Of a stretch of 64,000 nt of DNA, positions 30,260-63,889 are shown one piece after another. The notes below the pieces were generated by a model. It was given only the letters and a program-made list of their open reading frames with translations. It had not been told where the DNA came from and ran no database searches. Where the stretch lies: contig JBBPEB010000021.1 of the NCBI GenBank assembly GCA_039096225.1, positions 496,001 to 560,000 of the forward strand, written 5' to 3'. Each line of letters begins with the position of its first letter. The first letter of the stretch is position 1. A program made the position numbers and the translations under genes. Source of the DNA: Blastocystis sp. Blastoise. Lineage: Eukaryota; Protista; Bigyra: Opalinata.

Positions 30260-30297
30260 TTCTAGAACATTCTAGAACATTCTCGAAACTTCTAGAA
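30260..30297. promoter_or_regulatory. Heat shock element array (8 nGAAn units)
   Basis: TTCtaGAAcaTTCtaGAAcaTTCtcGAAacTTCtaGAA, 45 bp upstream of ATG 30343. Confidence 0.8.
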
Positions 30298-30611: not shown

Positions 30612-31733
30612 TTAATAAATCTTTTTTTTGCTTGCCTCCTTTAATTCTTTTGTCCATTTCTTTGGCGTTTTTGACGGTTTAATATCTGGTTTTGGTAATA
30701 AAGGTATATCCACTCTATTAACTTTATAATGATTATTTCCATTTTCAAAAAAATCTTTAGAATAGGCCAAATTCGTCATAGTATTAAACAATGGAAATGT
30801 AACTTCATCATTTTCAATATTTTGCAGATCATTTTGATAATTTTGTGTTAACTTATTTTGATATTTTTTAATTTCAGGATTTAGTTTTACTTTATTATGA
30901 ATACGAACATTATCAGTATTTGTTGTATGTGCAAAAGGGTAATATCTGTCTGCTAAAATATTTTTAGAATTTTTCGCATCTGGATCTTCCCACCATTGTA
31001 CGTCATAAGCATCATCTCTATTCTTTCTTGCTTGATTCGCCATTTCTCTTATTGCATATGTATCATCTTCTAGACTTTTTTTAAACCATTCTTTCATATT
31101 ATTAAATGTTTCTGCACCTTTATCAACTATTTTATTAACACCGTTAGTAATATTCTGAACACCACCAGTTAATCTATCAGCAACATGGTATACATCACCA
31201 ACGGCATTAAAAACATTAGAAAATAAATTACCACCTTTAGAATATAAATAACCTTCATGATCCTTTCTATTAAAATCTATTGCGTCTTCAATTGTGTTAA
31301 AATTTAATAATTTTGAATAAGTTTCATAACCATCAATATTATTACGTTTCATATAAGGTAAAACATAATCATGAGCATATATAAGTTTTCTTGTAAAATT
31401 CTTGGGAATTCTACCATCAGGTAACAGACCAGATCCTTCATCAATTGGTTCAGTCTCTTCGTATTCTTCGTATGAATTCTTTATAATATCGGGTCTATTT
31501 AATTTTAGAAATGAATAGAGTGGTTTCAGTGTAGCATTGTTAACCATATTACTTTCTATTCGCTTAACAGCAGCTAAAGAATTAGGAGCAATAGAATAAT
31601 TAATTGGATGACGTTCTTCTCCATCAGGAATAGATCCTGGAACAATATAATTTCGATATTCATGACCAGTAGCACGATGATTTACGCCTACTAATCCTTT
31701 ATTTGAAACATTTAAACGAGCACTTTGTATCAT
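30612..31733 (-). CDS. Viral hypothetical protein, 373 aa, probable virion/core protein
   Basis: Intact intronless ORF. EGSG-L and KGG-N candidate protease sites, the latter followed by amphipathic LFSNVFNAVGDVYHVADRL. Basic C-terminus. Confidence 0.8.
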   Translation of the reverse strand: MIQSARLNVSNKGLVGVNHRATGHEYRNYIVPGSIPDGEERHPINYSIAPNSLAAVKRIESNMVNNATLKPLYSFLKLNRPDIIKNSYEEYEETEPIDEGSGLLPDGRIPKNFTRKLIYAHDYVLPYMKRNNIDGYETYSKLLNFNTIEDAIDFNRKDHEGYLYSKGGNLFSNVFNAVGDVYHVADRLTGGVQNITNGVNKIVDKGAETFNNMKEWFKKSLEDDTYAIREMANQARKNRDDAYDVQWWEDPDAKNSKNILADRYYPFAHTTNTDNVRIHNKVKLNPEIKKYQNKLTQNYQNDLQNIENDEVTFPLFNTMTNLAYSKDFFENGNNHYKVNRVDIPLLPKPDIKPSKTPKKWTKELKEASKKKIY

Positions 31734-33808: not shown

Positions 33809-34846
33809 TTAATGAAAAGATGGATAACCAGAATAATGTTTTTTATTTAAATAAGGATTAAAAATGCGTCGTTGACTATCTTGTATGATTTGATCTTGTA
33901 TGATTTGTAAGATGGATTCTTTAGGTTTATCTTTTTCATCTCGTTCAATACCTTTCAATGAGACTTCTTCTTCAACAGGTAAAAACTTCTTCATTTTCTT
34001 TTCATATGTAGATATATGTTCATTAGGACGTTTAATACCACTACCTGATACTTCACCTTGTTCTTCTCGTTTCTCTTTTTCACTATCTTCTTCTGTCCAT
34101 TTCCTTTTCTTTACCATCTTATATACATTCTGTTTACTACCACAATCAGGATTAGTCCATATTGTTAAATCATCACTACCTTGTTTTAACATAAAGAATT
34201 GATGTGGATCATTCATTAATTCTTCATCTGTAAGAATTTCATTTAGATTCGATGGCATAATCTTTAATTTATCTGGTAAGAATCCAGGATCACGTTTTAA
34301 GATTTGACTATTAATAAAGAAATGAGATACTTGACTTAATATAGATTGATTGGTAACATCTGTATGACTTTGAAGACATATAATAGCATTCTGTTTATAA
34401 TGACGACCTTTAGATAATATAGATACAATCAATTGTTTGGTTTGTCTAGATAATGGATAGATATCATCCAATACAATGAAATTATGTTCTGGTAATTTAT
34501 ATGTATTGACTAATTCATCAACAGTTTTAATCTTTTTAAATTTATCATCTACAGAATCATACCATTTATAATCAATTCCAGCATGTTCACAAATATCTTG
34601 AAAGGATGTATAACATTCATTCTTATTGGATGCATCAGGACAAATTACTGTGACTTGTTTATATTTATTTTTAAGATCCATAGAACATAAGAGGTTCACA
34701 GTTAAGAAAGATTTTCCTGAGAATGTTCTTGCAATAATCAATATGAATTTTGATTCATATGTTTTATGATGTGATTTTCCATATTTAAATTCTAAGACTC
34801 CACATCCTTTACGTGTTTCTTTTAATGGATTTATTTTATTCACCAT
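33809..34846 (-). CDS. A32/FtsK-HerA-type genome packaging ATPase
   Basis: Walker A ILIIARTFSGKS, Walker B FIVLDDI, GRH motif (SKGRHYKQN) and IICLQS. Confidence 0.9.
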   Translation of the reverse strand: MVNKINPLKETRKGCGVLEFKYGKSHHKTYESKFILIIARTFSGKSFLTVNLLCSMDLKNKYKQVTVICPDASNKNECYTSFQDICEHAGIDYKWYDSVDDKFKKIKTVDELVNTYKLPEHNFIVLDDIYPLSRQTKQLIVSILSKGRHYKQNAIICLQSHTDVTNQSILSQVSHFFINSQILKRDPGFLPDKLKIMPSNLNEILTDEELMNDPHQFFMLKQGSDDLTIWTNPDCGSKQNVYKMVKKRKWTEEDSEKEKREEQGEVSGSGIKRPNEHISTYEKKMKKFLPVEEEVSLKGIERDEKDKPKESILQIIQDQIIQDSQRRIFNPYLNKKHYSGYPSFH

Positions 34847-35683: not shown

Positions 35684-36907
35684 TTAATTGGTTGCACCAT
35701 CTCTAACAAATTTAACAAATATAAAATGAGCATATAAAGTATAAGTACCACTAGTAATATTTGCACCATTATATTCAGTTAATAAGGAGATATTAACTTC
35801 ACAACCACTACGAGTATTGACATCAACAACACTTGAAATAGGGAATATATAAATAGGTTGTTCATACCACTTTTCACCATTCAAAGGAGATTGAGGATGA
35901 CTATTACATCTCCAAGTATTATAAAGCATAGCATTAGGAATAATTTGTGATGGATTCGTTGTTTTATATGTAGTAGGGAAATCCGTCTTAGGTAAGATAT
36001 TTTGACCACCAATTTGGAATTGACACATCTTCAATAATTCAGTCTTAATAGGAATCATACTCTTCTCTTGAGTTGTAAAATATAGCATACAGTAATCAGG
36101 TACGAAAACAACACTTCTATTGGATAAGAATTGTTGTGGAGTTGGTTTACCTGCTGTTGAGAATGTTTCTGAATAAACAGGTGTAGTAAATGCAGATATT
36201 TGACAATTATTAGGAATACATTTAATCAAAGCACGTGGATCATTACCAAAATTAATATCATAAATTTGTTGAAGATGAATATAAACACGATCAAATGTTA
36301 ATGCAGTGATTTTAGTGGTTCCAGTAAATAGATTCTTTAAATAATTTGTAACGAATTGCATCTTCAAAGATTTTACTTTAATAGCACAATCAAATGTACC
36401 AAGACCAGTAATAAGAGATAAAGGAATAATAACTTGAGCTTTAGTAGAACTTTGCATTCCAGCAATACTACTTAAGGTTGTATTATATAAGCATTCTGTC
36501 ATACTATACATAGATTTATCAATTTCATCTTTACTTAATTCTTTAATAGTAACAAATTTTCTTGCTTTACTGGATTCAATAGAAGATTCAGAATAATTAA
36601 TAAGAATATCTTGACCCGTAGGAGATACAAACGTAAGATCTGTAGTAATTTTATCAATAATACTATAGATATTAGAATGTTGTACAACAGAACTAGTTGT
36701 AGCTGCATTTGTTGTAATATTGAAATTCAGTTCTAAGAATGAATTACTGAAATCAATAAAAGGACTATCAACTGAATTATATAAGAATTCAAATGGATAA
36801 GGTTGATTTAATAAATCTTGACTAGTAGAAACTAGAATAGGAATTTGTACAGGTTTAATAGTTTGATTTGCCTTTGAAGGTAAGAATTGTCTTGGGAATC
36901 CTTCCAT
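35684..36907 (-). CDS. Major capsid protein (double jelly-roll) paralog 1, 407 aa
   Basis: Beta-rich. N-terminal FIDFSNSFLELNFNI..NIYSIIDKI, then IPL and VPDYCMLYF..FQIGGQNILP, matching the DJR MCP pattern. Gene context supports it. Confidence 0.75.
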   Translation of the reverse strand: MEGFPRQFLPSKANQTIKPVQIPILVSTSQDLLNQPYPFEFLYNSVDSPFIDFSNSFLELNFNITTNAATTSSVVQHSNIYSIIDKITTDLTFVSPTGQDILINYSESSIESSKARKFVTIKELSKDEIDKSMYSMTECLYNTTLSSIAGMQSSTKAQVIIPLSLITGLGTFDCAIKVKSLKMQFVTNYLKNLFTGTTKITALTFDRVYIHLQQIYDINFGNDPRALIKCIPNNCQISAFTTPVYSETFSTAGKPTPQQFLSNRSVVFVPDYCMLYFTTQEKSMIPIKTELLKMCQFQIGGQNILPKTDFPTTYKTTNPSQIIPNAMLYNTWRCNSHPQSPLNGEKWYEQPIYIFPISSVVDVNTRSGCEVNISLLTEYNGANITSGTYTLYAHFIFVKFVRDGATN

Positions 36908-37080: not shown

Positions 37081-38553
37081 TTAAATATCACGTACACTAC
37101 GTACAGCAATCATATGTAATGTATAAGGATGCTTCTCATTTAGTTCAGTATTAATATGTTTATAAATACCAGCATGAGAAGCAACGGCATAAGAAGCACC
37201 AGTGTCAGGTGTCCATATTTTAGTAGTTTCATTATATGTACATGTATATCCATCAGGAACAGTAGATGAATCAGCATGACCATATTCAATATCATGGACA
37301 TCTAGATTACAATCAAAATTCATTTCTATACCACTATCTGATTGGATATTCATTAATGCTTTAGTTGGAATAATATAAATAGGATGTTTAATCCATTCAT
37401 CATATTTAAGAATAGTTTCAGGATTTGAATTATCAGCCCATAAACAATATAGATTTTTATTAGGACAAGATAAACTAGCAGTTTCTTCATTATTGAAGAC
37501 ATGACCTTTAGTAGTAAGATTATGATAATACATTTGAGTAGGGAATTCAGTTTGAGGGAACATTTGAACATCACCAATCAAACAACTTTGATATTTAGGC
37601 CATACAGATGGACTTGCTACATTACTAATAGTTGTTGAACTATACCCATTTGTAAACCAGTATAATATATATTCAGGTATAAATGGTAAAGCTCTATTGA
37701 TATTGAAATGATCACTAGTTATTCTTGTATTTTGATAATCGACTTGAATACATGTAGGTATAGTTTTATATAATTCATTCGTTTGGAATTGAATATCTTT
37801 ATAAGTCATTAAATTCATAGTAGCTGATTCCAATTCAAATGTCTTAAACCATTTTTCATCAGTTAGATGTAACCATTGTGTTGATAATTTAGCACCACCA
37901 TTCTTGAAATAAATACTCATATTATTATCAATTAAGGATTCAATTGTACTCGTTCTAAATAGCATATTGAAATGTTTAGTTAATATTAAAGAATCTCCAT
38001 CAACACCTAAACCACTAATGAGATATAAAGGAATAGCAATATGAATAGATTCATTTGGATGTGCACGTATATAACGAATAGAATTCAATTCATAAGTATC
38101 TGCAGATAAATCTTCACCATACATAGATTTTTCTAAATCATTCTTACTGATATCTTTTAATAAAATCATTTTACGACCACGTGAAGCATGTGTACAGTTT
38201 TCTTCATATTTCAAAGCACGATCAGATCCATCAGGTAAAGTATAAACCATTTCAACATCAGTGGAATCAATAATAGAATAAATATTAGCTTTTTGAACTA
38301 ATTGATCCAAGAAATATTGACATAATTGATCATAGGTGAAACTAACAGAAGTACCTGTTTCATCTAAATAAACAGAAACTGGTCCAGCTTTATCTGTGAC
38401 AGTTGCCTTGACAGTAAGATCCAAATAGGATTGATTGAAATTGATATAAGTGTTATCCACATTAGTCCAATGATATTGAAAGATATAAGGACTTGATAGA
38501 ATATCAGTATCACTTTGAATAGGAATATTATCTTTAATTCTTAAGATTCTCAT
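37081..38553 (-). CDS. Major capsid protein paralog 2, 490 aa
   Basis: Colinear similarity to 35684-36907 (NIYSIID, KSMY, IPLxLIxGLG, PxTxFPT, PIYIxP), with insertions. Confidence 0.75.
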   Translation of the reverse strand: MRILRIKDNIPIQSDTDILSSPYIFQYHWTNVDNTYINFNQSYLDLTVKATVTDKAGPVSVYLDETGTSVSFTYDQLCQYFLDQLVQKANIYSIIDSTDVEMVYTLPDGSDRALKYEENCTHASRGRKMILLKDISKNDLEKSMYGEDLSADTYELNSIRYIRAHPNESIHIAIPLYLISGLGVDGDSLILTKHFNMLFRTSTIESLIDNNMSIYFKNGGAKLSTQWLHLTDEKWFKTFELESATMNLMTYKDIQFQTNELYKTIPTCIQVDYQNTRITSDHFNINRALPFIPEYILYWFTNGYSSTTISNVASPSVWPKYQSCLIGDVQMFPQTEFPTQMYYHNLTTKGHVFNNEETASLSCPNKNLYCLWADNSNPETILKYDEWIKHPIYIIPTKALMNIQSDSGIEMNFDCNLDVHDIEYGHADSSTVPDGYTCTYNETTKIWTPDTGASYAVASHAGIYKHINTELNEKHPYTLHMIAVRSVRDI

Positions 38554-41635: not shown

Positions 41636-43432
41636 ATGCAATCAACAGGTTATTCAGATAAAGATTGTGAAGAATTCTTTACAAATTGTATAGATCAATT
41701 ATTACATTGGAAGAAAATACAATTATCAACAAGTATAAATTGGAAGAAATGGATCAAAACAATATGTAAGAAATTTCGTAATGAAGAACGAATTCAAATA
41801 GATGATATGGAAGAACCATTCTTTTGTGTAGAAGTGTTAACAGATCCATTTCAATTTCAAAATGTTATGCAACATACACAAACAGAAGCTCCTGGACAAC
41901 AAGGTGGATTATCCAATACTACAGTAGCTAATTATATGCAAATGATTACATATATAATGAAGAATATATCTATTTGTACAGATGATGAAGATATCATTAA
42001 TTATAAAGCATTTACTCCACAAAATATAAAGAAATGGGAACATTTATGGGGTTCTTTACAAATTGATGCTACTTATTCAAGACATTATGAAATCACTCAG
42101 AAAATTATTAATTGTGAAGCTGATTGGGGAGAAATCATTAATATCACCAAAAAGAATTATTTAGAGAATCCTAATGATTTATATTATGTGAATAGTTATT
42201 TATTAGTTTTAACTTATGATACATTATGTGCTCGTAATGATTATAATGATTGTGTAATCTATACTCGTGGTCAACAAATTCCTTTATCCTTAAGAAGAAC
42301 AACCAATTATATTGATTTAAATACTTTGACTATTCATGTGAATGATACAAAGAATCGATTTGAAATTGGTAAGAATGAATATCCTACTTATCAATATTTA
42401 TCAGAAGAATATTTGAATGTCTTAGCTAGATCCTTACGTTTATTTCCAAGACATTATTTATTTGTTACTGAGAATGGTGGTAAAGTACGTGATTTGAAAT
42501 TTGGTGATGAATATATAAAACCCCATTTAGGCTGGATTTATAAAACACAACAGAATAATTCTTTAATTAATGGTTGTGATATTATAAGACATTTATTTGC
42601 TCAATATTATTATAGATTATCAAGAGAAGCACAATTCCAACATAATGATTCAGAACACGAATCTAAAGGTGTAGAACTCTTTGAAAATTCGATTATGAAG
42701 ATGTTACATAGTCAATCAACACATATGGAAAATTATATATCTCCTTATTTATCTTCTCATTCAACTAAATTGCAAGATTTAGATAATAAAACAAGAACAT
42801 TTCATATTGATATGAATAATATTACTTATACAAGAGAAATTAATCAATTGAATAAATTATTATTTTTATGTAAACGATTTAATGATCGTATAGAACAATA
42901 TGAAGAAGACTATGAAGATGTATTTGGTAAAGAGAATTTCAATATGAAATCAGAATCCATATTAAGTAGTCTAGAACAATATTCATCAGATAATGATACT
43001 ATAATGATTACATTAAGATATTATAAAGATCTATTAAAGCATCATTATCCAGATAAAACAGATTTAGAAAATGAATTACCTGTAGGATGTTCATTAGAAT
43101 CTGAAGAAGTTCCAGAGAATTCTAGAGATCGTTATAATCGTTTTATACGTAATAAACAATTATTACCTGATCATTTACATAATAATACAACGGATTCAGA
43201 ATTAACGAATACTCAAGCATCTCTTATGCAACAGAATACTCAAGATGAAAACTCTACACCTATAGTTATGAATAATTCAGATACTTATGCATTACGTAGT
43301 CTTTCTACTATGCCTCCTTTAGAACCTATTCATCGTGGTCATGGTTTATTGAAAAAACATAAAAGTAATGCATTCTTTAAAGTCAAAGTCCCTAAAAAAC
43401 ATTTTCATGGAATACAATTTAAATTTTATTAA
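41636..43432 (+). CDS. Tyrosine recombinase / integrase
   Basis: Catalytic residues in order: R (LCARND), K (NDTKN), xxxR-H (DIIRHLFA), H (MLHS) and Y (THMENY). N-terminal core-binding-like helix (LSNTTVANY). Confidence 0.8.
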   Translation: MQSTGYSDKDCEEFFTNCIDQLLHWKKIQLSTSINWKKWIKTICKKFRNEERIQIDDMEEPFFCVEVLTDPFQFQNVMQHTQTEAPGQQGGLSNTTVANYMQMITYIMKNISICTDDEDIINYKAFTPQNIKKWEHLWGSLQIDATYSRHYEITQKIINCEADWGEIINITKKNYLENPNDLYYVNSYLLVLTYDTLCARNDYNDCVIYTRGQQIPLSLRRTTNYIDLNTLTIHVNDTKNRFEIGKNEYPTYQYLSEEYLNVLARSLRLFPRHYLFVTENGGKVRDLKFGDEYIKPHLGWIYKTQQNNSLINGCDIIRHLFAQYYYRLSREAQFQHNDSEHESKGVELFENSIMKMLHSQSTHMENYISPYLSSHSTKLQDLDNKTRTFHIDMNNITYTREINQLNKLLFLCKRFNDRIEQYEEDYEDVFGKENFNMKSESILSSLEQYSSDNDTIMITLRYYKDLLKHHYPDKTDLENELPVGCSLESEEVPENSRDRYNRFIRNKQLLPDHLHNNTTDSELTNTQASLMQQNTQDENSTPIVMNNSDTYALRSLSTMPPLEPIHRGHGLLKKHKSNAFFKVKVPKKHFHGIQFKFY

Positions 43433-43552: not shown

Positions 43553-46480
43553 CTATAAACAATTTCTTCTTTTTTTAGATAAACAATTGGATAAACAGAA
43601 TAAATCTGTATCTACACATTCATTATAAGTATTATCAATCATTAAACCACAAATACCAATAGCATTCCCTCCCTTATAAAAATTTGAAGTATGTTTTCTA
43701 TGAATATTCACAATATCTATAGAATTAAATGTATCTTTACTACTTAAACAACCAAATAAAGCATTTGTAAATTTATCTAAATCTTTCTTAATCGTAAATT
43801 GATTATTATTATTCACTTTCTTATAACTATTAAAAATATCTTCAATAGTAACTACATTCAAATAATAAGGATCTATAGTAATATGGTTATCAACAAAAGA
43901 TTTCAAATCATATCCTTCTGTACTACGATCAAAGAATCGTTTCTTACATTCACTTATATGATATTCATTATCTAATTCATGCATATCTAATTGCATACTA
44001 GAATAGAAATAATTACTTACTAGATAACTAAAGATAATTGAACGATTCTGATAGAATTTATCAGATAAAGTATAATCCATTTCATAATGATTTGGTTTCA
44101 ATCTCTTTTCTACTGTCTGTTTACGTTTCGGTAAATTATGATCTACATAATCTTCATATAAATTAGCATTACCAGGAGGGAAATAACGACAACATGATGG
44201 TAAGAAACAAACTCTTCTTTCAATAGGACCAGCATTCACAGCAGTAGGTTGGATATTACTTGTCATAAATAAAGTACCTGTGAAATGAACTTTTGTAAAT
44301 ATATTACTGAATAATTTACGAGCACTAGCACCTTCTTTCTTTTCTGCTATTTCTTTAAAGACTTTAGAAGAGAATGGATTAAATGTTTTCTTTCTACCAG
44401 TAACATCTTCTTCTATTAATTCATTCATATAATACATTGTTTTATTAGACATATCTACAATCTTAGGAGCTATAGATGTTTCTTCTAAATTATCTGGATT
44501 TACTATAATACATTGATTACTACCTACAATACGAGAAATTAAATCAGTTGTTATTGTTTTACCATTACTACCTGTACTACCATATAATATATAAGAAACT
44601 GTTTTCTGAGTATTGACATAGAAAGCAGTGGTTAGGATACGTAACATAATACTTTCATATTTCTTATCGAATTCACAATATCTTGCAATATGTTGTTCAA
44701 ATAATTGGATAATATCTTTCTGTTCATTATTAATATTCCAACTTACATTAAATTCAGTATCAATTAATAAATCTTCAAATACCATATCTTCTTTATGATA
44801 TGGTTGGATATAATATTGTCTAGGATCTTCTTCTGTAGATTCTTTTGGATATAAATAACCAAGTTGTGTATAGATAACACGTTCTTTATGAACCATATAC
44901 GTATCTAAATATTCTTTATAAGATTTACCATAAGTCTTCAAATAACGATTCAACCATTCTTTATAATGATATTCATTAGTAACAGAAGCAGACATTATTT
45001 TATCAACTATTTTTTGATGTTGTTCATTCTCTTTGGAATATAATCTTGATAATTTGAATTTCTCTACAATCGATTTCATAAATGTAGTTATTTTGGTTTC
45101 AAAAAAATTAATATCATAATTATTCTTACAACGTCTTAAGATATTATATTCATCAAATGTATATAAGATAAAATTATCTTTATCTAATATAATAGAAACA
45201 ATTTCATTAAATTCTAATAATTGAAATAACATAACTAATGTTTGTGAATCTACAAGATTAAAGGATTGAATACATTCTAAAATAGACATAAATATGAAAT
45301 CATTATCATCATCTTTATTAAATAATTTATTATCCATTAATATCTTCAAAATATAATTATTCGATAAATGAGTAGGATCAACTTGTATATGATTCCATGT
45401 AGATTCAATTACATCATCACTTCGATCATGACCATAACGTAATGAATAATTTTTAAATAATTCTAATCCTCTTGTTGTATTACAAATCTGTTTTGCTGCA
45501 CAACATAATTTATACCAAGTATTATGGGATTCAAAATAATTCATATCTTCAATAGAACCAATCAATAATAAATATCGTTCTAATAAAGCTTCTTTAGATG
45601 CTGTAGTATCCAATATAGTATCTGTAGAAATCAACATAGGAATATCTTTAATATCTTGTATAGAACATAATATAGTACGTGAACAATTATTTAATCTTGC
45701 ATAATAACGTTTATAACGTGAATATTGTTTTAATTTATAAAAGATAATAGGATTAATAATATCACTTATAATATCATCTTCATTCTTATAATTCAATAAT
45801 GTTTTGAAATAATAATGTTCATCGATTTCATCATCTATTTTCTTCCATGTTTTATTGGTATATTCTTCGTATAATTTATAAGTAGATGGAGAATTATCTT
45901 TACTACAACCAAGAAACATACAACCATTATTCTTTCTTGGTTTACCAATAACATTATAATCAATGAATTCTTTTATATCTAAATTATTCATTTTACATAA
46001 ATCAACCAATTTGGTATTCAGAATCATACTATTATATAAGAAAAATAAATAATCACCATTTACAAACCAATTTGTATATATGTGAATTCCCCATGAATAA
46101 TGTATTTCATTATGAACTGTCTTCTTATTCACTTCTTTCTTTGTATACAGAAGCGAAATAAATTCTTGATTATAATAATGAATACAATGATTACATATTT
46201 CTTCAATAAATTCATGAATAAATGAATCTGTTAGAAAAGAAAAATCATTTGATATTTGGTGATAATCTAAATCAAACCATAATCTTCTATAATTAGTTGA
46301 TGTATTACAAGGAGTACAATCAATATAATGTAGTAATTCTTTTGGATTTTGATAATTAGTAAATAGACTTTTATAAAATGGTAATGGATTTGGTATAATA
46401 ATTTCACTATGATTATCTTTTGAATTATCATGATTAAAGGAACCAAAAGTATAAACAAAATGAATTTGTGAATTTTCCAT
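43553..46480 (-). CDS. AEP primase + PriCT-2 + D5-like SF3 helicase, 975 aa from the first ATG
   Basis: AEP motifs LWFDLD, GIHIY and FID. PriCT-2-like HNTWYKL..GLELFKNYS..TWNHI. SF3 GSTGSNGKT, YYMNE, LFMTSN and IERR. The track start 46528 is TTG; the first ATG is 46480. Confidence 0.9.
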   Translation of the reverse strand: MENSQIHFVYTFGSFNHDNSKDNHSEIIIPNPLPFYKSLFTNYQNPKELLHYIDCTPCNTSTNYRRLWFDLDYHQISNDFSFLTDSFIHEFIEEICNHCIHYYNQEFISLLYTKKEVNKKTVHNEIHYSWGIHIYTNWFVNGDYLFFLYNSMILNTKLVDLCKMNNLDIKEFIDYNVIGKPRKNNGCMFLGCSKDNSPSTYKLYEEYTNKTWKKIDDEIDEHYYFKTLLNYKNEDDIISDIINPIIFYKLKQYSRYKRYYARLNNCSRTILCSIQDIKDIPMLISTDTILDTTASKEALLERYLLLIGSIEDMNYFESHNTWYKLCCAAKQICNTTRGLELFKNYSLRYGHDRSDDVIESTWNHIQVDPTHLSNNYILKILMDNKLFNKDDDNDFIFMSILECIQSFNLVDSQTLVMLFQLLEFNEIVSIILDKDNFILYTFDEYNILRRCKNNYDINFFETKITTFMKSIVEKFKLSRLYSKENEQHQKIVDKIMSASVTNEYHYKEWLNRYLKTYGKSYKEYLDTYMVHKERVIYTQLGYLYPKESTEEDPRQYYIQPYHKEDMVFEDLLIDTEFNVSWNINNEQKDIIQLFEQHIARYCEFDKKYESIMLRILTTAFYVNTQKTVSYILYGSTGSNGKTITTDLISRIVGSNQCIIVNPDNLEETSIAPKIVDMSNKTMYYMNELIEEDVTGRKKTFNPFSSKVFKEIAEKKEGASARKLFSNIFTKVHFTGTLFMTSNIQPTAVNAGPIERRVCFLPSCCRYFPPGNANLYEDYVDHNLPKRKQTVEKRLKPNHYEMDYTLSDKFYQNRSIIFSYLVSNYFYSSMQLDMHELDNEYHISECKKRFFDRSTEGYDLKSFVDNHITIDPYYLNVVTIEDIFNSYKKVNNNNQFTIKKDLDKFTNALFGCLSSKDTFNSIDIVNIHRKHTSNFYKGGNAIGICGLMIDNTYNECVDTDLFCLSNCLSKKRRNCL

Positions 46481-46566: not shown

Positions 46567-46604
46567 GAAGCTTCTAGAACATTCTAGAACATTCTAGAAC
46601 ATTC
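46567..46604. promoter_or_regulatory. Heat shock element array (8 units), proximal to the primase-helicase
   Basis: GAAgcTTCtaGAAcaTTCtaGAAcaTTCtaGAAcaTTC, plus an extra TTCtaGAA at 46549-46556. Confidence 0.8.
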
Positions 46605-46638: not shown

Positions 46639-46686
46639 TTCTAGAACCTTCTAGAACCTTCTAGAACCTTCTAGAACCTTCTAGAA
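46639..46686. promoter_or_regulatory. Heat shock element array (10 units), distal to the primase-helicase
   Basis: (TTCtaGAAcc)4 followed by TTCtaGAA. Confidence 0.8.
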
Positions 46687-47531: not shown

Positions 47532-47705
47532 GAATGTTCTAGAAGGTTCATTTGATTGGCTAATTTTGTCGACTTAGCATTTAGTATTTGTGTTTCGATG
47601 ACGAACATAGTCGGCATCTGTAATCTGATTGGATAAAAAAATTAGTAAAACACAATTAGACGATGACGACGATGTGTCATACGAAATAAGTTATTTTATT
47701 GGCTT
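47532..47705. promoter_or_regulatory. Bidirectional promoter with an HSE (4 units) and three reverse CCAAT boxes
   Basis: GAAtgTTCtaGAAggTTC at 47532-47549. ATTGG at ~47555, ~47628 and ~47698, between divergent ATGs 47420 and 47819. Confidence 0.65.
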
Positions 47706-48436: not shown

Positions 48437-48544
48437 AGAATTCTTGAATGGTCTAATGGATCTATTAAAGAAATATGTAACCACAGTATCATGGTTCGAT
48501 TCCGTTAAAATGTTTCCATTAGATTATTCAAGTGTTCTTTTTTT
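48437..48544 (+). ncRNA. Putative RNA polymerase III small RNA, VA-RNA/EBER-like architecture
   Basis: A box TGGTCTAATGG 48449-48459, B box GGTTCGATTCC 48493-48503, terminal stem 48437-48460/48515-48538 with G-U pairs, T7 terminator 48538-48544. Confidence 0.72.
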
Positions 48545-48590
48545 CTAGAACCTTCTCGAACATTCTAGAACCTTCTCGAACCTTCTCGAA
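48543..48590. promoter_or_regulatory. Heat shock element array (10 units) upstream of the SSB gene
   Basis: TTCtaGAAccTTCtcGAAcaTTCtaGAAccTTCtcGAAccTTCtcGAA, ending 76 bp before ATG 48667. Confidence 0.8.
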
Positions 48591-48666: not shown

Positions 48667-49260
48667 ATGTCTTCAACTGAATTTAAGAAACCTGCTATTC
48701 TTGATACTTCTAACTTTAATTTACAATGGGATGACACCAAAGAAAATGCTGTTCTTTTAAATAATAATCATCGTGTATGTATTTCTACTGATGCTACACC
48801 ATGTTTATTTGGTTATATTGTTACACGTGATAAATGGACTTTATTAACAATTGAAGATGATAATCAAGTATTCTTAACTGCTTATAAAGAACTTTATCGT
48901 AAATTATGTGAATTATGTCCTGATGGTGATATTGTTAATTTTGTACGTATGGATAATGGTAAATATAAGATTACAATTAAAGTACCTATTAATGCATCGA
49001 AGAATGTTACTATTGATATTACTGATAAAAGAGATAAGAAGATTAATATCGGTAAAGATCCTAAGTTAACTTACGAAGAAATACGTGAAAAGTATATTCC
49101 ACCAAATACGTTATGTAAAGTATTATTTACAATACATGGTATTCATCGTTATAATAACAAGTATTATATTGGTTTATATGCTCGTTCTATTAAAGTCATC
49201 GATAAATCTACGAAGAATACTAATAGTAATGATACTATTATTGATTTAACTAATTTATAA
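48667..49260 (+). CDS. Probable OB-fold single-stranded DNA-binding protein
   Basis: C-terminal IPPNTLCKVLFTIHGIHRYNNKYYIGLYARSIKV plus a short acidic tail resembles T7 gp2.5/NCLDV-type SSBs. Replication-gene context. Confidence 0.6.
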   Translation: MSSTEFKKPAILDTSNFNLQWDDTKENAVLLNNNHRVCISTDATPCLFGYIVTRDKWTLLTIEDDNQVFLTAYKELYRKLCELCPDGDIVNFVRMDNGKYKITIKVPINASKNVTIDITDKRDKKINIGKDPKLTYEEIREKYIPPNTLCKVLFTIHGIHRYNNKYYIGLYARSIKVIDKSTKNTNSNDTIIDLTNL

Positions 49261-49335
49261 ATTTTTAATGTTAAATTTATTTTTTATTAATATATTTGTT
49301 TTGTTTATAAATAATTTTATAATTGAAATAAAAAA

Positions 49336-50964
49336 ATGCAAAGTTGTATATTAGGAATGCCAAGTCCTGGTACTTTTGGTATGAATTTAATTTCAACTGG
49401 AAAAGAATATAGGCGATATAATACACAACCATTACATAAAATGGATCAATATAATCCAATATTTCATGAAATAGGTCCAAATTCATCTATGCCTGTGTCT
49501 ACTTTAGAAAGTAAAGAAATACATGATGGTAAAGAAGATGATTATGTAGATCGTTCTAAAACATTTGGTAAAGATGCTGTTCCACAAGGAAATGGTGCTT
49601 TAATTCGTGCTAGAGCAGCAGGTAAAGGTGTAATGAAAGCAGCTGGTCCAGAAGAAGATAAAATAGATGGTGAAGATCGTCAATATAAAGTATTAAATCC
49701 TTGTAAACCAAGACGTAAATCTGGTAGAGGAATTATTCCAAATAAATCAGAAATCAATAAATTAGAGAATAATCAAGGTTCTGGTATTGGTGATGCAATT
49801 AAAAATAAAGTAAAAGATATGTATCAACGAAATGTATTAGATATAAGAGATGCTATTGTAGATAAAAAAGCTAATAGAAAAGCTCGTGATGCATTAGCTA
49901 TTTTAGCTCAATATGTTGGTGATGGTCATCATGATCTTGATGATGAATTCAAAAGATTCTATGAACATAAAATTAAACGTGGTGGAAAGATTCCTATATC
50001 TGTTGCTTCAGCAATTATGAATGCAATTAAAAATAAGAAAATGATTAAGAATCCAAAATTAAGAAGAATGTTAAGACCTTCAATTATACCAAAATATATA
50101 GATTTAGATTCAGCTCAAAGTGGTGATGGTATATTAAGAGTTAAAAGAGGTGGTGGATTCTGGGATGGAGTTATGAATTATGCACCAGCTCTTTTAGGTG
50201 TAGTTGATAAAGGTATGGATTCTTTTGCTAAAGGTAGAAAAGCTTATTATGATACACATTTGGCACAACAGTCAAGTGAATTAAATGATATGGAATTTGA
50301 AATGGAAAAATTAAAACGTCAACAAGCATTAAATGAAATGAAAAAACAAATAGGTTCAGGAAATACTATAAATAAGATGTTTGAAGGATATTATGATGTA
50401 GCTGATGAAATGCAAGATGCTCTTGATGAAGATGATAGATTACATCCACAACCCGTTGTTCAACCTCCACCACCTCCACAACAACAAGTTGTTAGACCTC
50501 CTCAACCTCAACCTCCTCAACCTTATAAGCCAATGTCTCGTGATGAACAAAGTTATTATTATAAGATTTATGGTTTCCCTCAAAATGATAAGGAGAAAGT
50601 CGATAGAAAATGGAAAGAAGATGAAAGGGATAAACGAATAGCTGCAAGAAGAGCTAAACGTAGAGGTTATGGTGGTCGAGTTAAATTAAGTAAAGAAGAA
50701 TTCTTAGAACGAATGAGAAGAGGAAAAGAAGCTAAAAAGAAAAAAGGTGGTGATTTACCTCCATTAGTAACAGCTTATACAGATTTTGTAATACCTGCAC
50801 AAGTAGAACAAAGGAAACGTAAAGTAGTTAAAAATGATTTAAAACAATTACAAATTATAAAACAGAAAATGGATAATAATGAAATATTAGATAGAGGTGA
50901 GCAAATGTTTTGGAAAGAAAAGAAGTATATGTTATCAAAAAACTCAGGGGAGGGGATCTGGTAA
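49336..50964 (+). CDS. Basic core polyprotein precursor, 542 aa, with many GxG/GG cleavage sites
   Basis: At least 10 motifs (QGNGA, AGKGV, SGRGI, QGSGI, RGGK, SGDGI, RGGGF, IGSGN, YGGR, KGGD, SGEGI). K/R-rich with a P/Q-rich linker. Confidence 0.8.
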   Translation: MQSCILGMPSPGTFGMNLISTGKEYRRYNTQPLHKMDQYNPIFHEIGPNSSMPVSTLESKEIHDGKEDDYVDRSKTFGKDAVPQGNGALIRARAAGKGVMKAAGPEEDKIDGEDRQYKVLNPCKPRRKSGRGIIPNKSEINKLENNQGSGIGDAIKNKVKDMYQRNVLDIRDAIVDKKANRKARDALAILAQYVGDGHHDLDDEFKRFYEHKIKRGGKIPISVASAIMNAIKNKKMIKNPKLRRMLRPSIIPKYIDLDSAQSGDGILRVKRGGGFWDGVMNYAPALLGVVDKGMDSFAKGRKAYYDTHLAQQSSELNDMEFEMEKLKRQQALNEMKKQIGSGNTINKMFEGYYDVADEMQDALDEDDRLHPQPVVQPPPPPQQQVVRPPQPQPPQPYKPMSRDEQSYYYKIYGFPQNDKEKVDRKWKEDERDKRIAARRAKRRGYGGRVKLSKEEFLERMRRGKEAKKKKGGDLPPLVTAYTDFVIPAQVEQRKRKVVKNDLKQLQIIKQKMDNNEILDRGEQMFWKEKKYMLSKNSGEGIW

Positions 50965-51058
50965 AGAGTAAAGATGAAAAACTTATTCAAAATTCAATGA
51001 ATTGTGATAATCCTATTATATCTGATAAAACTCGTCATGTTACTCCTAGATCCCCTGA
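50937..51058 (+). promoter_or_regulatory. -1 programmed ribosomal frameshift signal
   Basis: In-phase slippery heptamer A AAA AAC 50937-50943, a 7-nt spacer, then aggggatct 50951-50959 complementary to agatcccct 51048-51056. The downstream ORF is in the -1 frame. Confidence 0.72.
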
Positions 51059-51530
51059 TAATTTCAAACAAACTCTATCTCAATATTGTAATATACCAAA
51101 TTCTCTAATATCTCAATTATATAATTATGCTTATTTAAATAAACCTACCTCATCTGTTGCTTGTGATCGTGCTGAAAATGTTATGAAACAATTAAATAAA
51201 ACAAATTCTCAATCTTATAATTATTATAATAGTTATGATGATTTTGAACAAAATATAGATCAAGATCAAACTAAATTTAATATGATCTTCCATGAAAGTC
51301 CTAGTGATCCTTATAATGGTCATTTTGAAGCTGTTATTTATAATGGTAATAAAAATATAGAACACTATTCATCATTAGGAAATAAACCTACTTTTTCAAA
51401 ATCATTTATTCAAAATCATAATATTCAATATAATCCTATTCAACACCAAAAAACTACAAGTAATGCAAATGGTTGCTTTTATTATTCTTTACTTTATTTA
51501 CTTTCTAATGGAAATCTTATGCCTTGTTAA
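50943..51530 (+). CDS. Adenain/Ulp1-like (clan CE) maturation cysteine protease, probably made as a frameshift fusion
   Basis: NGHFEAV (His), IEHYSSLG (the usual FDS/FEP-x-G strand), QHQ (oxyanion Gln) and NGCFYYSLLYL (Cys). The track start 50910 is TTG; the first ATG is 50997. Confidence 0.75.
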   Translation, partial: LRGGDLVKSKDEKLIQNSMNCDNPIISDKTRHVTPRSPDNFKQTLSQYCNIPNSLISQLYNYAYLNKPTSSVACDRAENVMKQLNKTNSQSYNYYNSYDDFEQNIDQDQTKFNMIFHESPSDPYNGHFEAVIYNGNKNIEHYSSLGNKPTFSKSFIQNHNIQYNPIQHQKTTSNANGCFYYSLLYLLSNGNLMPC

Positions 51531-51534
51531 AACA

Positions 51535-51552
51535 TTCTAGAATATTCTAGAA
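51535..51552. promoter_or_regulatory. Heat shock element (4 units)
   Basis: TTCtaGAAtaTTCtaGAA upstream of ATG 51617. Confidence 0.7.
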
Positions 51553-51616
51553 TCTTTAATTTATTATATTAATATTTTGTATAATTAATTTGTTTTGTTT
51601 ATTATTTAATACTATA

Positions 51617-51772
51617 ATGACAAAGAAACGATTTGGCAATTACTACTTAGATCGTAGTGCAGAAATTTTAGAGAATGTAAATGAAATACTGTCAGTTATT
51701 GAAATTGTTCTTATTATTATATATATTTTACTTTACTTTTATATGTCCAAGAAACGTTCTAGAACATTCTAG
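51617..51772 (+). CDS. 51-aa single-pass membrane protein
   Basis: MTKKRFGNYYLDRSAEILENVNE-ILSVIEIVLIIIYILLYFYM-SKKRSRTF. HSE upstream and 3' motif at 51843-51852. Confidence 0.55.
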   Translation: MTKKRFGNYYLDRSAEILENVNEILSVIEIVLIIIYILLYFYMSKKRSRTF

Positions 51773-51779
51773 AACATTC
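51757..51779. promoter_or_regulatory. Heat shock element (5 units)
   Basis: TTCtaGAAcaTTCtaGAAcaTTC upstream of ATG 51875. Confidence 0.7.
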
Positions 51780-57933: not shown

Positions 57934-60900
57934 ATGAAAAATAATCAAGTATTAAACGAAAATCAAAATGATTTTAATCAACACAATTCGTTATTAAATA
58001 ACAATAATTCTTTAAATAATGAAGAAATAGTAACTGAACAACACCCAATACAACTAAACAATATAGAAACTATATCTGCTTCTTCTTCTATTCCAAGTGT
58101 TACTTCAACTCAAAGTAATAATAATAATCTAATTGAAGCATCAATTAATGAAATCAATTTTATTGAATCAGATTTAAATAATAATACAAATTTAAATAAT
58201 GGAATTATATATGAAACTTTAATAAATGAAACAGATTTTATTGAAACTGACATAAATAATAACAACAATGAAAATATGTCTCAATCAATAGTTGATGATA
58301 GTTTTAATTCTACTTTTGTTTTTGAAAATAATGAAACAAATAATAATACACAACCTATAATATTAAATAATCCTGTAACTCCTTTACATAATCAACACAA
58401 TAATGATATACTTTCAGATAATAATAATAGTATCAATAATAATCATATTCCATCTATACATAATACACCAAATTCTAATACAAATAATCAAATAGTATCT
58501 CCTTCTACTTCTCTCATTATAACACCTCCTAGATTATCTCCTCTTGATTCAAGAATAATTAGTTCTTCTTCTTCTTCTCATAATAATAATAATAATTCTA
58601 TTATTCCTCCTCTGCCAAGATCATCGATATTAGATATATTAAATTATTATCAAATATCTCCTATTCAAAATCCTAATAATAATAATTTATTATCAACAAA
58701 TATAAATAATCATAGAAGAAGAATTAGTTTTGATTCTTCTACTTCAGATGATGATACAAGTTCAGATAATGATTTCACACCTATTATTCCTCCTAATACT
58801 ATTAATAATCCTATTTTGCAAATAGAACCAATAAATACTACAAATAATAATGATATAGATATAGATAATCAAAATGAAAATAATAATGAAGAAAATAATA
58901 GCAATATTCCAATTGTAATAAGATTTGAAAACTGTGAAGCATGTATTAAATTAAGTATGTTTAATATTATATCATTATATTATTATAATTCTTTATGATA
59001 ATAAAACTATTATTATATTATGTATAGGAAATGGAGAACAAATAATAGAAGAGAATGAAAGAGATATTCATAGAAATAATATATATGAATATTATAATAT
59101 AGGTAAAATGAATCATGTTTGTATTCATTGTGAAGCTCTTCATTTTGAAGCAGAAAAAACAAATTATAAGATTACAAAATATTCTACATATAAAAAATAT
59201 ATTAATTTAATTAATGATTCAAGAATACAATTTGAATACTATGAAGGAGATCATGATTATATCATTACAAGAAATTCAAATTATACAATGTGTTGTAATA
59301 ATGGGAAAGTGAAAGTAGAATCACCTATAAATCTTCCAAATGAATTATTAAATCAATTAAAGAGTCAGACACCAAATAATAAATTATTTAGAAATGAGAT
59401 AAGAAGATATAATAATGCTTTTGCTTTTGCTTCTATGTCATGTTCTAATGTAGTAACAAGAATGAATGGTCCAGGACCATATTTTTATAGAGTTCATGGT
59501 AATGTATATCATTCTATGAGTGATTTATATCCTTCTGATAATTCTCCTCCTTCTTTTAATCAAATATATATTTATGATGAAGAAGAAGCTCTTCATATTC
59601 GAAATGGAAATAGTATGTTTTCAGAATTATCTTCTGATTTATTATTAAGTATTGATTCTATGATAAGAAATAATAATAAAATATATGAATCTTTTAAAAC
59701 ATTACATGAACAAGTAACAGAATCAAGAAGAATAAATAATACTACTTATTCACAAGTAAATTTAAAATTACAATTTAAAATAAGTAATTATGATGATAGA
59801 AGAAGATTTAATGCTCCTACTACAACAAATGAAATAGCTATGATTATACCAAAACAAAATGATGAAGGTTTACCAAATATTAATCTTTCATGTTATCCAA
59901 GAAGAAGAAGAAATAATAGTAATAATGAAATTGAAAATGAAAATGAAAATAATAATGAAAATATATCAGAACAACAAATAACAAATCTTAGTTATAATAA
60001 TCCTTTTTGTGATCCATTAATATATCCATTAATGTTTCCTTATGGATTACCATTATGGAGTTTAGAATCTACTTCTAATATTATACGTAATTCTGAATTA
60101 CATTTAAATCGTCAAAATAATAATAATAATAATAGAAATATTTCTACAACAACTAATAATAATAATAATAATAATGAGAATGAAATAATAGAAGAAGTAG
60201 AAAATGAATTAAATAATAGAAATAATTATAGAATAAATAGTAATCATATAGAGAATAATGATAGTAATGGAGATGATTCAAAATCGATGAGAATTATTCC
60301 AATTTTTAGAAATAGATCAGAAAGAGGATTTCCATTAGATATTTTAGGAAATGAATTTTATACTATACCTACTATTTCATTAAGAGAATTTTATTCTTAT
60401 TTATTATATACAAGACATCCTAATCATAAGAATTATTTATTATTATTTGAAAAATTATTATTACAATTTATGGTTGATGCAGCTACAAAAATAGAATATT
60501 CAAGATTATTATTTATAGCAAATAATCAAACAAAATTAAGATCAGAGAAATATTCTGTATTTAGAGATACAGTGAATGAGATGATACGAAATGGATTTAG
60601 TGATGAATATATAAGAAGTAGAATGGGAAAAGCAGTTATTATTCCATCAAGTTTTGTAGGTGGTCCTCGATATATGAAGAATTCTTACTTAGAAACAATG
60701 GCTATTGTAAGAGCTTATGGTAAACCAGATTTATTTATAACCATGACTTGCAATCCAAATTGGCCAGAAATCTTAGAATCATTAGAAGAAGGTCAACAAC
60801 CTTGGATGAGACCTGATATAGTAGATAGAGTATTTTATATAAAATTGAAAATCTTAACTCATTTGATAACAAACTTTAAAGTATTTGGAGAAGTAAAATG

Positions 60901-63889
60901 TTTATGTTATTCAATAGAATATCAGAAGAGAGGAATGCCTCATGCACATATTTTAATTACTTTAGAGAATGAATATAAATTAAGAACTCCTGAAGATATA
61001 GATTCCTATATATGTGCAGAAATTCCTGATCCTATAAAGAATCCAAGATTATATGAAATTATTACTTCAATGAATATGCATGGTCCTCATACAAGAACAT
61101 CTCAATGTATGAAAGAAATAAATGGTCAACAATATTGTTCAAAGAAATTTCCAAAAGAATATAGAAATGAAACTACAATAAATGAAGATGGATATCCAAA
61201 TTATAGAAGAAGAGATAATGGTAGAGTATATGTAATAGGTAGGCAATCAAATGTAAATAATACTTTAGATAATAGATGGGTAGTTCCATATAATCCATAT
61301 TTATCATTAAGAATAGGTTGTCATATTAATGTAGAAGTATGTTCTTCAGTAAGAAGTCCTAAATATATATTTAAATATGCTTTTAAAGGACATGATTCTA
61401 TTAATGCAGAAATAGAAAGAGAAGATACTAATAATAATACTAATAATAATAATTCAATTAATTCAAATAGAAATGAAATAGAAATACCAAATGAAATGAA
61501 ATCTTATTTAAAAGGAAGATATTTATCAGCTCCTGAAGCTATGTGGAGAATATATGGATTTCCAATAAAATATTGTAATGTGAGTGTAATTACTTTAGAT
61601 ATTCATGATGAGAATGATAGAACTATATATTATGTAGAAGGAGATGAAGAAAGAGCTTTAGATAGAATAATGAATCAAGATACAATGTTAACAGCATATT
61701 TTAAAATGAATGATTTATATATAAATGAAGAATCAAGAGGAACAATGGATGAACCCTCTATTTTAACTTATATAGAATTTCCTAAATATTATACATATGA
61801 TTCAAAATTAAAGAAATGGAATCATAGAAGAAGAAATAATAAAGTAATAGGAAGACTTCCTTATATGGATCCTACAAATGATAATTTATTTTGTTTAAGA
61901 ATACTTTTATTACATGTAAGTCGTCCATTAAGTTTTGATGATTTAAAATGTTATGAAGGCCAAATATATAATACATATAGAGAATCCTGTATAGCAAGAG
62001 GATTATTAGTAGATGATACAGAATATTATGATATTCTTGCAAATGAAGTAATAGATGCTACTCCTTGGCAATTAAGACAATTATTTGGTTTACTTTGTTC
62101 TTATTATCCTATTACTGATCCATTATCTATTTGGAATACTTATAGGAATGATATGATAGATGATTTCTTTCATCAATATATAAATGAATATATAAGTATA
62201 GATAGACAAGATGCATATGTATTAGATTCAGAAGATAATGAAGTGAATAGAATAATAGAAGAATATTGTATACCTAGAGCATTAAATCATATAAGAAGTG
62301 TTATAGATACAAATAAACATAATGGAGGATATCAAAGTACTAATTTACCACAATTTGATAATAATACTAATATGATAGATTATGAATCTGAAGGAATTAA
62401 TTTTGAAGAAGATCATAGAATAGCCGAAAGAAATATAAGTTTATTGAATGAAGGACAAAGAAGAGTATATGAATCAATAATGGAATCAGTGAATAATAAT
62501 GAACCTCATAGAAATAATATGTTTTTTATAGATGGACCAGGAGGAACTGGAAAAACATTTCTTTATAATACAATAATTAAATCAATAAGAAATAATATAG
62601 ATGATGTGATAGCAGTTGCATGGACAGGTATTGCAGCTACTTTATTATGTGGAGGAAAAACATCTCATTCACAATTTGGATTACCTTTTGAATTAAATGA
62701 ATCTTCTTCTTCTTCTATTTCAAGAGGATCTCCAAGAGCAGAACAAATTAAGAAATGTAAAATAATAATATGGGATGAAGCTCCTATGGCTTCTAAATAT
62801 GCTTTAAAAGTAGTTGATCGATTATTAAGATTCTTATATAATGATGAGATAGATATTCCATTTGCAGGTAAAACAATAGTATTAGGTGGAGATTTTAGAC
62901 AATGTTTACCAGTAGTAGCTCATGGAAAAGAAGCTGATATTGTTCCTTTATGTATTAAATATTTAGATATTTGGAATGAATTTAATCAATTTCAATTGAC
63001 AGAAAATATGAGAGCAAATGCAAATGAAATAGAATTTAAAGAATTCTTATTGAAGATAGGAAATGGTGAGAGATGTAATAATGAATTAAGATTATTATCA
63101 AAAGATAAAGTACATATTCCAAGAGAATGCATTTGTGATGAGAATATAGGTGAAGAGATATTTCATGAATTTATTAATGATTCAAATACAGATATATATA
63201 GACAGAAATTAGCTTCAAATTGTATATTATGTGCAACAAATGAACAAGCATATTTAATTAATGAAAGAATTCAAAATATGATAAGATCAAGTTCTCATCA
63301 TTATTATAGTCATGATGAATTAGCAGAAGAAGTAGAAGATATAGATGAAAGAGATGCTTATAGTACAGAATATTTAAATAGTTTAATTCCTCAAGGATGT
63401 CCACCTCATGATTTAGAATTGAAAAGAGGTTCAGTTATTATGTTATTAAGAAATTTAGATATAAAGAGAGGATTATGTAATGGAACGAGATTAGTAGTAT
63501 TAGATACAAAACCAAATGTAATAAGAAGTCAATTATTAGTAAGAACTGATAATATGTTAGAAGGACAAGATATAGTATTGATTCCAAGAATTAAATTTAT
63601 AGTAGATGATAGTGATTTACCATGTAAGTTAAGTAGAAAACAATTTCCTGTCAGATTAGCTTTTGCTATGACTATTAATAAATCACAAGGTCAAACATTT
63701 CAAAATGTAGGTATTTATTTAGAAAGACCTGTATTTAGTCATGGTCAATTATATGTTGCTTTAAGTAGAGTACGTTCTTTTCACGGTATAAAAATGTTTA
63801 TAAAGAATGATAATATTAATCAAGGTCAATTAATCAGAAATAGTAATGAATGGTATACTAAAAATTGTGTATTTAATGGAGTATTATAA
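57934..63889 (+). CDS. Helitron RepHel transposase (HUH Rep + PIF1 helicase), spliced
   Basis: Intron 58955-59027 joins the two track ORFs in frame. Rep motifs PDLFITMTCN, EYQKRGMPHAH and KYIFKY. PIF1 motifs DGPGGTGKT, WDEAPM, GDFRQ, TINKSQGQT and HGQLYVALSR. Confidence 0.95.

Follow-up and report, generated by a model that had tools for sequence, protein, structure and literature searches.

A 64,000-nucleotide (nt) stretch of DNA from Blastocystis sp. Blastoise (assembly GCA_039096225.1, contig JBBPEB010000021.1, positions 496,001 to 560,000 of the forward strand; called the window below, position 1 being its first letter) was analyzed computationally. It contains a block of about 22 kb (window 30.2-52 kb, ~27% GC), densely packed with genes and apparently free of introns, within an AT-rich eukaryotic contig. 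Two overlapping open reading frames (ORFs) of this virus-like element are considered here: a basic ORF of 542 amino acids (aa), likely encoding a virion core polyprotein, and a cysteine protease frame displaced by -1 (Table 1). Their junction carries a slippery heptamer followed by a predicted RNA hairpin, an arrangement suggestive of programmed -1 ribosomal frameshifting.

Table 1 Features of the core-protease unit, in window coordinates
Feature	Coordinates	Strand	Basis or remark
3'-end motif of the preceding ORF (48667-49260), 5' boundary of the unit	49297..49305	+	motif scan
542-aa ORF, 0 frame, likely virion core polyprotein	49336..50964	+	basic, GG/GxG-rich
GTATAT, host-type splice donor look-alike	50925..50930	+	12 nt upstream of the heptamer
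Slippery heptamer A_AAA_AAC, in 0-frame register	50937..50943	+	sequence (tcA AAA AAC)
CE-clan (adenain/Ulp1-like) cysteine protease, -1 frame, 195 codons	50943..51530	+	putative catalytic His 51321, Gln 51441, Cys 51474
LRGG, first four -1-frame codons, candidate self-cleavage site	50943..50954	+	sequence; P0018 and P0034 also have GG here
Spacer, 7 nt	50944..50950	+	between heptamer and predicted stem
Predicted stem, 5' arm: 11 bp, 4-nt bulge with the 0-frame TAA, 6 bp	50951..50971	+	folding
First protease-frame ATG, in a weak context and within the predicted hairpin	50997..50999	+	context comparison
Predicted stem, 3' arm	51040..51056	+	folding
3'-end motif TGTTTTGTT, the sole one for the core and protease ORFs	51591..51599	+	motif scan; resembles TGTTTGTT

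Architecture of the core-protease junction

The 542-aa ORF ends with the heptamer, six further codons and a TAA stop (50962-64), while the -1 frame stays open between 50901 and its own stop at 51528-51530. A shift at the heptamer would therefore add 195 codons to 536 and yield a predicted fusion of 731 aa. An earlier first-pass annotation of this DNA had described the in-register A AAA AAC, the open -1 protease frame and a fusion of ~731 aa, and all of these were recovered here; the junction letters were read from the assembled sequence alone. Signals for -1 frameshifting in eukaryotes combine an X_XXY_YYZ heptamer in 0-frame register with a stimulatory structure behind a spacer of typically 5-9 nt (PMC3542737), and A_AAA_AAC is among the most shift-prone heptamers (PMC5009743). 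The junction shows an in-register heptamer, a predicted structure 7 nt downstream, and a -1 ORF that is open and conserved.

When the 16 ORFs of the element were scanned, 23 in-frame X_XXY_YYZ heptamers were found among 6,237 codon positions. The site at 50937-43 is the only one that reads A_AAA_AAC, and it ranked first both for the length of the -1 ORF (195 codons, against no more than 13 at the others) and for the folding energy of the sequence downstream (-31.2 versus -24.7 for the next), rankings to be read with the caveat that the site had been singled out for these very features. The nine codons at the site make up the most unusual synonymous choice among 6,141 windows, in both frames, and the AAC that completes the heptamer is rare (4% of Asn codons).

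Folding of the downstream region predicted a 17-bp stem, formed by 11 bp (50951-61/51046-56, one G-U) and then 6 bp (50966-71/51040-45). Pair probabilities lay between 0.81 and 1.0, mostly above 0.9, with 0.54 for the outermost pair. The energy of -31.2 kcal/mol corresponds to a z of -2.67, and none of 200 dinucleotide shuffles was equally stable; by raw energy the site takes rank 17-20 among 4,338 windows of the element, the strongest of which are palindromic repeats elsewhere. Shuffling produced an equally good partner for the 11-nt arm in 3 of 20,000 cases, and 2 of 216 element windows contain one, both traceable to the site itself on the two strands. The pairing of aggggatct (50951-59) with agatcccct (51048-56), proposed in the first-pass annotation, involves exact complements, and the actual stem is longer than was noted; the alternative register tcagggga/tcccctga is likewise exactly complementary, but none of its pairs exceeded a probability of 0.05 in folding.

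A simple helix search found no convincing pseudoknot. Its best helix between the loop and downstream sequence, nine AU/GU-rich pairs whose end lies 36 nt beyond the stem, was rejected as one. Rfam returned a single match, a miRNA-precursor model, far under its cut-off. The stimulator is predicted to be a long bulged hairpin rather than a pseudoknot.

Properties of the protease and core ORFs

The putative catalytic His (in a G-H pair), oxyanion Gln and Cys occur in CE-clan order and are invariant in 7/7 aligned sequences; the close family also conserves a Glu two residues past the His. The fold was assessed by modeling P0001, a homologue with 61% identity (pLDDT 65.6). Its top match in BFVD was a MELD virus protease (E 9.5e-5). 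The top PDB rows were CE-clan structures, none at E<=0.001 (best Z 5.8, root mean square deviation (rmsd) 4.4, 126 aligned), and comparison with pS273R of African swine fever virus (ASFV) gave a VIA Z of 5.7 (rmsd 4.5, 134 aligned). Together these comparisons lend modest support to a CE-clan fold; a PDB sequence search gave no meaningful match.

The 542-aa ORF has a K+R content of 19% and contains five GG and five GxG-hydrophobic sites. A Pfam search with it found no match; it is likely a virion core polyprotein. It is one of three basic, Gly-Gly-rich ORFs inside the ~22-kb block. Separately, a 373-aa ORF on the minus strand (30612-31733) matches the start of the 542-aa ORF (49336-49530) over its N-terminal ~65 residues (32% identity, E 2e-6). 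By this resemblance the two ORFs are putative paralogous core-like precursors, just one of them linked to a protease.

Adenain cleaves at (M/I/L)xGG. The first-pass annotation had placed this consensus immediately after the shift, and LRGG does fit it there, as does one site in each of two other ORFs; none of the five GG sites in the 542-aa ORF does. The predicted cleavage motif is accordingly of a general xxGG/GxG type, not the adenain consensus. A cut at LRGG would free a protease of 191 aa and 22 kDa.

Predicted transcript boundaries and the protease start codon

The motif TGTTTTGTT lies within 160 nt after 15 of the 17 ORFs tested. The two exceptions are the 542-aa ORF and the ORF at 41636-43432, which has a copy with one mismatch. 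A scan for copies with 0-1 mismatches between 49340 and 51590 found none, and since no TGTTTTGTT motif separates the 542-aa ORF from the protease, a single mRNA for both fits. That the two ORFs share one motif had been noted before, with its start given as 51590 instead of 51591; the accompanying statement that every other large viral ORF has its own motif holds for the 15, the ORF at 41636-43432 having just the mismatched copy.

TGTTTTGTT is close to TGTTTGTT, the polyadenylation motif of Blastocystis (PMC4159000). Across 30535-51852 it occurs in 15 copies in the 22-kb element, versus five of either form in the 28-kb host part. According to PMC10690189, a related downstream element is not enriched at genes of tortoise-clade Blastocystis. 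The motif of the element may be a missed one-base variant of the host element or a virus-specific 3'-end signal.

The protease frame has its first ATG at 50997, with T at -3 and 33% GC upstream, while 15/15 other ORFs have A or G at -3 and 0-22% GC; its context is the poorest of the 16 element ORFs. In the homologue P0034, Leu stands where this ATG encodes Met.

Copies and relatives of the unit

About 20 near-identical copies of the block's ORFs are deposited at NCBI, on many contigs labelled Blastocystis sp. Blastoise. All 21 distinct copies of the 542-aa ORF have the same stop and identical last 14 residues, whereas residues 15-58 from the end vary. In the -1 frame, the stretch of 13-18 residues that follows the shift and precedes ATG 50997 shows conservation in five homologues, three of them from one cluster: identities are 7/18 in P0018, 9/18 in P0034 and 5-6/13 in P0001/5/8, and 0-44 of 100,000 shuffles score as high. 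In the metagenomic relative P0018 (ENA) and in P0002 (Logan), a region homologous to core residues 240-504 (E 6e-12) continues via GG into the protease. Three other relatives, P0035/39/40, are annotated as single proteins of 533 aa that begin with a region homologous to the core (E 7e-22) and end with the protease. Pre-ATG conservation, the poor ATG context and the fused relatives are three lines that all say the protease would be reached from upstream.

The short-read lineage of P0001 presents the split form: 15/15 members were called as individual proteases (115-190 aa), the contigs measuring up to 24 kb, so a split between core and protease exists outside this assembly. A region search for further core homologues returned the host's own copies only. 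The same host assembly also contains at least two more diverged element families (P0034/P0038 and P0035/39/40), whose core-protease junctions apparently differ.

Alternative explanations

Several observations weigh against a programmed frameshift or weaken the case for it. The chance of some canonical heptamer falling in the 18-codon overlap is p ~0.06, and dual-coding overlap of any kind distorts codon use, which weakens the argument from codon choice. The 21 copies come from one assembly, with representatives scored 85-99% identical, and are therefore not independent. The acidic third residue of the catalytic triad is not obvious, the close family having YSSLG versus YSDSLG or FDCSFG in distant members. 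P0035/39/40 are gene models of a eukaryote, and the continuity of core and protease in them is that of the annotation. Scans of viral, metagenome and genome contigs, and a tblastn search of phage records, yielded no DNA of the diverged relatives. To these points are added those that speak for one of four rival explanations.

Minority splicing from GTATAT 50925 could remove the stop or shift the frame and join the core to the protease. The donor is of the commonest host type (GTATATA in 7/10 introns of two host genes in the window, counted by eye), and acceptors at 50947, 50968 and 51049 (introns of 23, 44 and 125 nt) all give stop-free joins. In another family, moreover, P0034 and P0038 look intron-bridged, core and protease being apparently joined by predicted splicing at different points. 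These models, however, also extend past the protease end, like ab initio errors, and look like a gene finder bridging a split. The ten host introns measure 71-284 nt at 1-13% GC, with 9/10 ending in TAG, so that at 23 and 44 nt two of the candidates fall short of this range, while the 125-nt candidate has 31% GC and would delete conserved coding residues. Introns of tortoise-clade Blastocystis are longer than 30 nt (PMC10690189). The 18.9 kb of viral ORFs, which look unspliced, contain GTATAT 11 times, 21/21 copies are annotated as ending at the stop, and splicing leaves heptamer, spacer and stem unexplained; we consider it improbable. Separate synthesis of the protease, from ATG 50997 or a near-cognate CTG at 50958 on a 5'-shortened transcript or by re-initiation after the stop, would agree with the Met retained at the 50997 position in two relative clusters (that of P0001, and P0018), with gene calls in relatives that begin at that Met or 13 codons upstream, and with distant MELD-type proteases that stand alone; among distant relatives, P0036 and the 27-member P0037 cluster are short, separate proteases that start at a Met of their own. 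The T at -3 and the GC-rich, paired leader set this ATG apart from the other 15 starts, P0034 lacks the Met, the residues before the ATG and the GG site are conserved, and the heptamer and stem are again left without a role, which makes separate initiation less probable still.

Two explanations remain. The split could stem from a systematic mistake in homopolymers or polishing, or from a lesion that was inherited, the gene being truly a single ORF as in P0018. The A6 and G4 runs at the junction and the continuous relative speak for this, and polishing of multi-copy viral inserts can create false frameshifts (PMC10120064). Against this, 21/21 copies on different contigs agree despite nearby differences, the short-read lineage is also split, the catalytic residues are intact, and a plain ORF would have no use for rare GC-rich codons and a 17-bp stem; we rate an error or lesion below separate initiation in probability. 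Slippage of RNA polymerase on the A6, adding a base so that the frame change is transcriptional, is favored by the position of the run exactly at the junction. Known cases use longer runs than the mere six A found here, and slippage does not need a stem at ribosomal spacing, so that this explanation appears the least probable of the four.

Proposed mechanism

Programmed -1 ribosomal frameshifting at 50937-50943, giving a minor 731-aa core-protease precursor, is in our judgment the probable explanation. The first-pass annotation had proposed this shift, and it remains the best fit to the stop shared by the 21 copies, the conserved frame before the ATG, the poor context of ATG 50997 and the continuous relative. 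On a single mRNA carrying both ORFs, the stem would make ribosomes pause while tRNA-Lys and tRNA-Asn occupy AAA AAC, and a minority would slip back one base. The majority would terminate six codons past the heptamer and produce a 62-kDa core polyprotein, while shifted ribosomes would produce the 731-aa precursor of 84 kDa. The fusion would co-assemble with the unshifted core protein, the 22-kDa protease would be released at the GG four residues after the shift, and the freed enzyme could then act on the GG/GxG sites in the core polyprotein and in the products of two other basic ORFs. In this way the shift would set the protease:core ratio and carry the protease into the particle, as in betaretroviral gag-pro. 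The continuous core-protease relative would be a 1:1 version of the same design.

No separate database record was found for the protease of the ~20-copy family, an annotation gap for which the frameshift reading accounts. Other endogenous viruses may therefore contain fusions of this kind that have gone unnoticed. If functional, the ~130-nt candidate cassette would be a clear case of frameshifting in Polinton-like viruses and of a convergent Gag-Pro, and would show a route by which a maturation protease enters the particle at a set ratio.

Genomic setting of the element

Host genes rich in introns flank the ~22-kb block on the left, and a Helitron lies to its right. Profile searches identified a P-loop ATPase at 33809-34846 (phrog_2666, E 1e-10) and a primase-family protein at 43553-46480 (phrog_1156, E 2e-9). 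Two adjacent paralogous ORFs of capsid size on the minus strand (35684-36907 and 37081-38553; 407 and 490 aa, 28% identical) are likely a duplicated major capsid protein; neither matched a family in Pfam or phrog profile searches, and a single-sequence model of a candidate had a pLDDT of 30. The ORF at 41636-43432 is likely a tyrosine recombinase, judged by eye from its motif, and the 197-aa ORF preceding the core ORF (48667-49260, plus strand) resembles, on the same kind of comparison, a viral single-stranded-DNA-binding protein. Neither gave a match in Pfam or phrog profile searches. With the capsid and integrase as candidates, the predicted gene content is consistent with an endogenous virus of the Polinton-like/MELD type in a gut protist.

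Arrays in which 4-10 nTTCn/nGAAn units alternate perfectly lie at 30260-30297, 46567-46604, 46639-46686, 47532-47549, 48543-48590, 51535-51552 and 51757-51779. Long arrays are confined to the element, with a maximum of three units elsewhere in the window, and sit upstream of the primase-helicase, the single-stranded-DNA-binding-like ORF and small ORFs. They match the heat-shock-element consensus, and the host heat-shock factor may be able to switch on the provirus. For terminal inverted repeats, the 25 longest of 1,101 inverted pairs were considered, and all of these were satellite DNA. To the right of the element, a satellite-like repeat block (~54.8-56.5 kb) precedes an intact Helitron Rep/Pif1 helicase ORF of 1,593 aa (59108-63889, plus strand).

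Comparison with known systems

Polinton-like and MELD viruses of Blastocystis and other protists are 15-30 kb long and encode a packaging ATPase, a primase-helicase and a cysteine protease (PMC8502044, PMC10120064). The element, at ~22 kb, resembles them in length and in these three predicted functions. The MELD element of Blastocystis hominis carries PolB and an rve integrase, whereas the element described here has a primase-helicase and a likely tyrosine recombinase; the available text of the two MELD papers mentions no frameshift for their elements.

ASFV pS273R, poxvirus I7 and adenain follow cleavage rules of the Gly-Gly type, and the predicted system resembles them in combining a CE-clan protease with such sites in basic core precursors. 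Those three enzymes are encoded by separate genes, while the protease here is predicted to be tethered to its substrate. A precedent is found in adintoviruses, for which the preprint of Buck et al. 2024 predicted -1 Penton isoforms and Hexon-Adenain ('Hexain') fusions (PMC11071296), so that a frameshift-fused adenain is already in print as a hypothesis. In both cases a Polinton-like virus is predicted to join a virion protein to an adenain-type protease by way of a -1 slippery site. The adintovirus case consists of one sentence based on KnotInFrame, concerns the major capsid protein as partner and animal viruses with PolB and an rve integrase, and, in the section available, comes without an in-frame relative or a conservation argument; the partner here is a likely core polyprotein. 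Within the literature searched, supplements being outside its scope, no report of a frameshift between core protein and protease in a Polinton-like virus was found; PMC8537868 and an egovirus preprint likewise contributed nothing here. Programmed frameshifting has been described as rare in eukaryotic DNA viruses (PMC8310308, PMC3542737).

A close functional parallel is gag-pro of mouse mammary tumor virus (MMTV), where an upstream structural polyprotein, a maturation protease in the -1 frame, a heptamer with a 3' RNA structure, and the same logic of ratio and packaging are combined. A_AAA_AAC is MMTV's own gag-pro site. The fixed-ratio logic of gag-pro frameshifting is described in PMC3542737, and MMTV shifts at 23% (PMC8310308). 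Unlike MMTV, the system proposed here resides in a double-stranded DNA (dsDNA) element of a protist, employs a CE-clan cysteine protease in place of a dimeric aspartic one, lacks a pol frame, and has a predicted long bulged hairpin where MMTV gag-pro has a compact pseudoknot. Pfam searches of 24 ORFs found no match to Gag domains, an aspartic protease, or pol/reverse transcriptase; on the predicted proteins, the likeness to retroviral Gag-Pro is purely functional, and the element is not a retroelement. With less assurance than for the frameshift itself, we lean towards the view that a eukaryotic dsDNA virus lineage arrived independently at the Gag-Pro design, in which a programmed -1 frameshift sets the dose of, and packages, a protease that frees itself from the core polyprotein, and that sister lineages form a series running from stand-alone protease through obligate in-frame fusion to a frameshift-tuned fusion.

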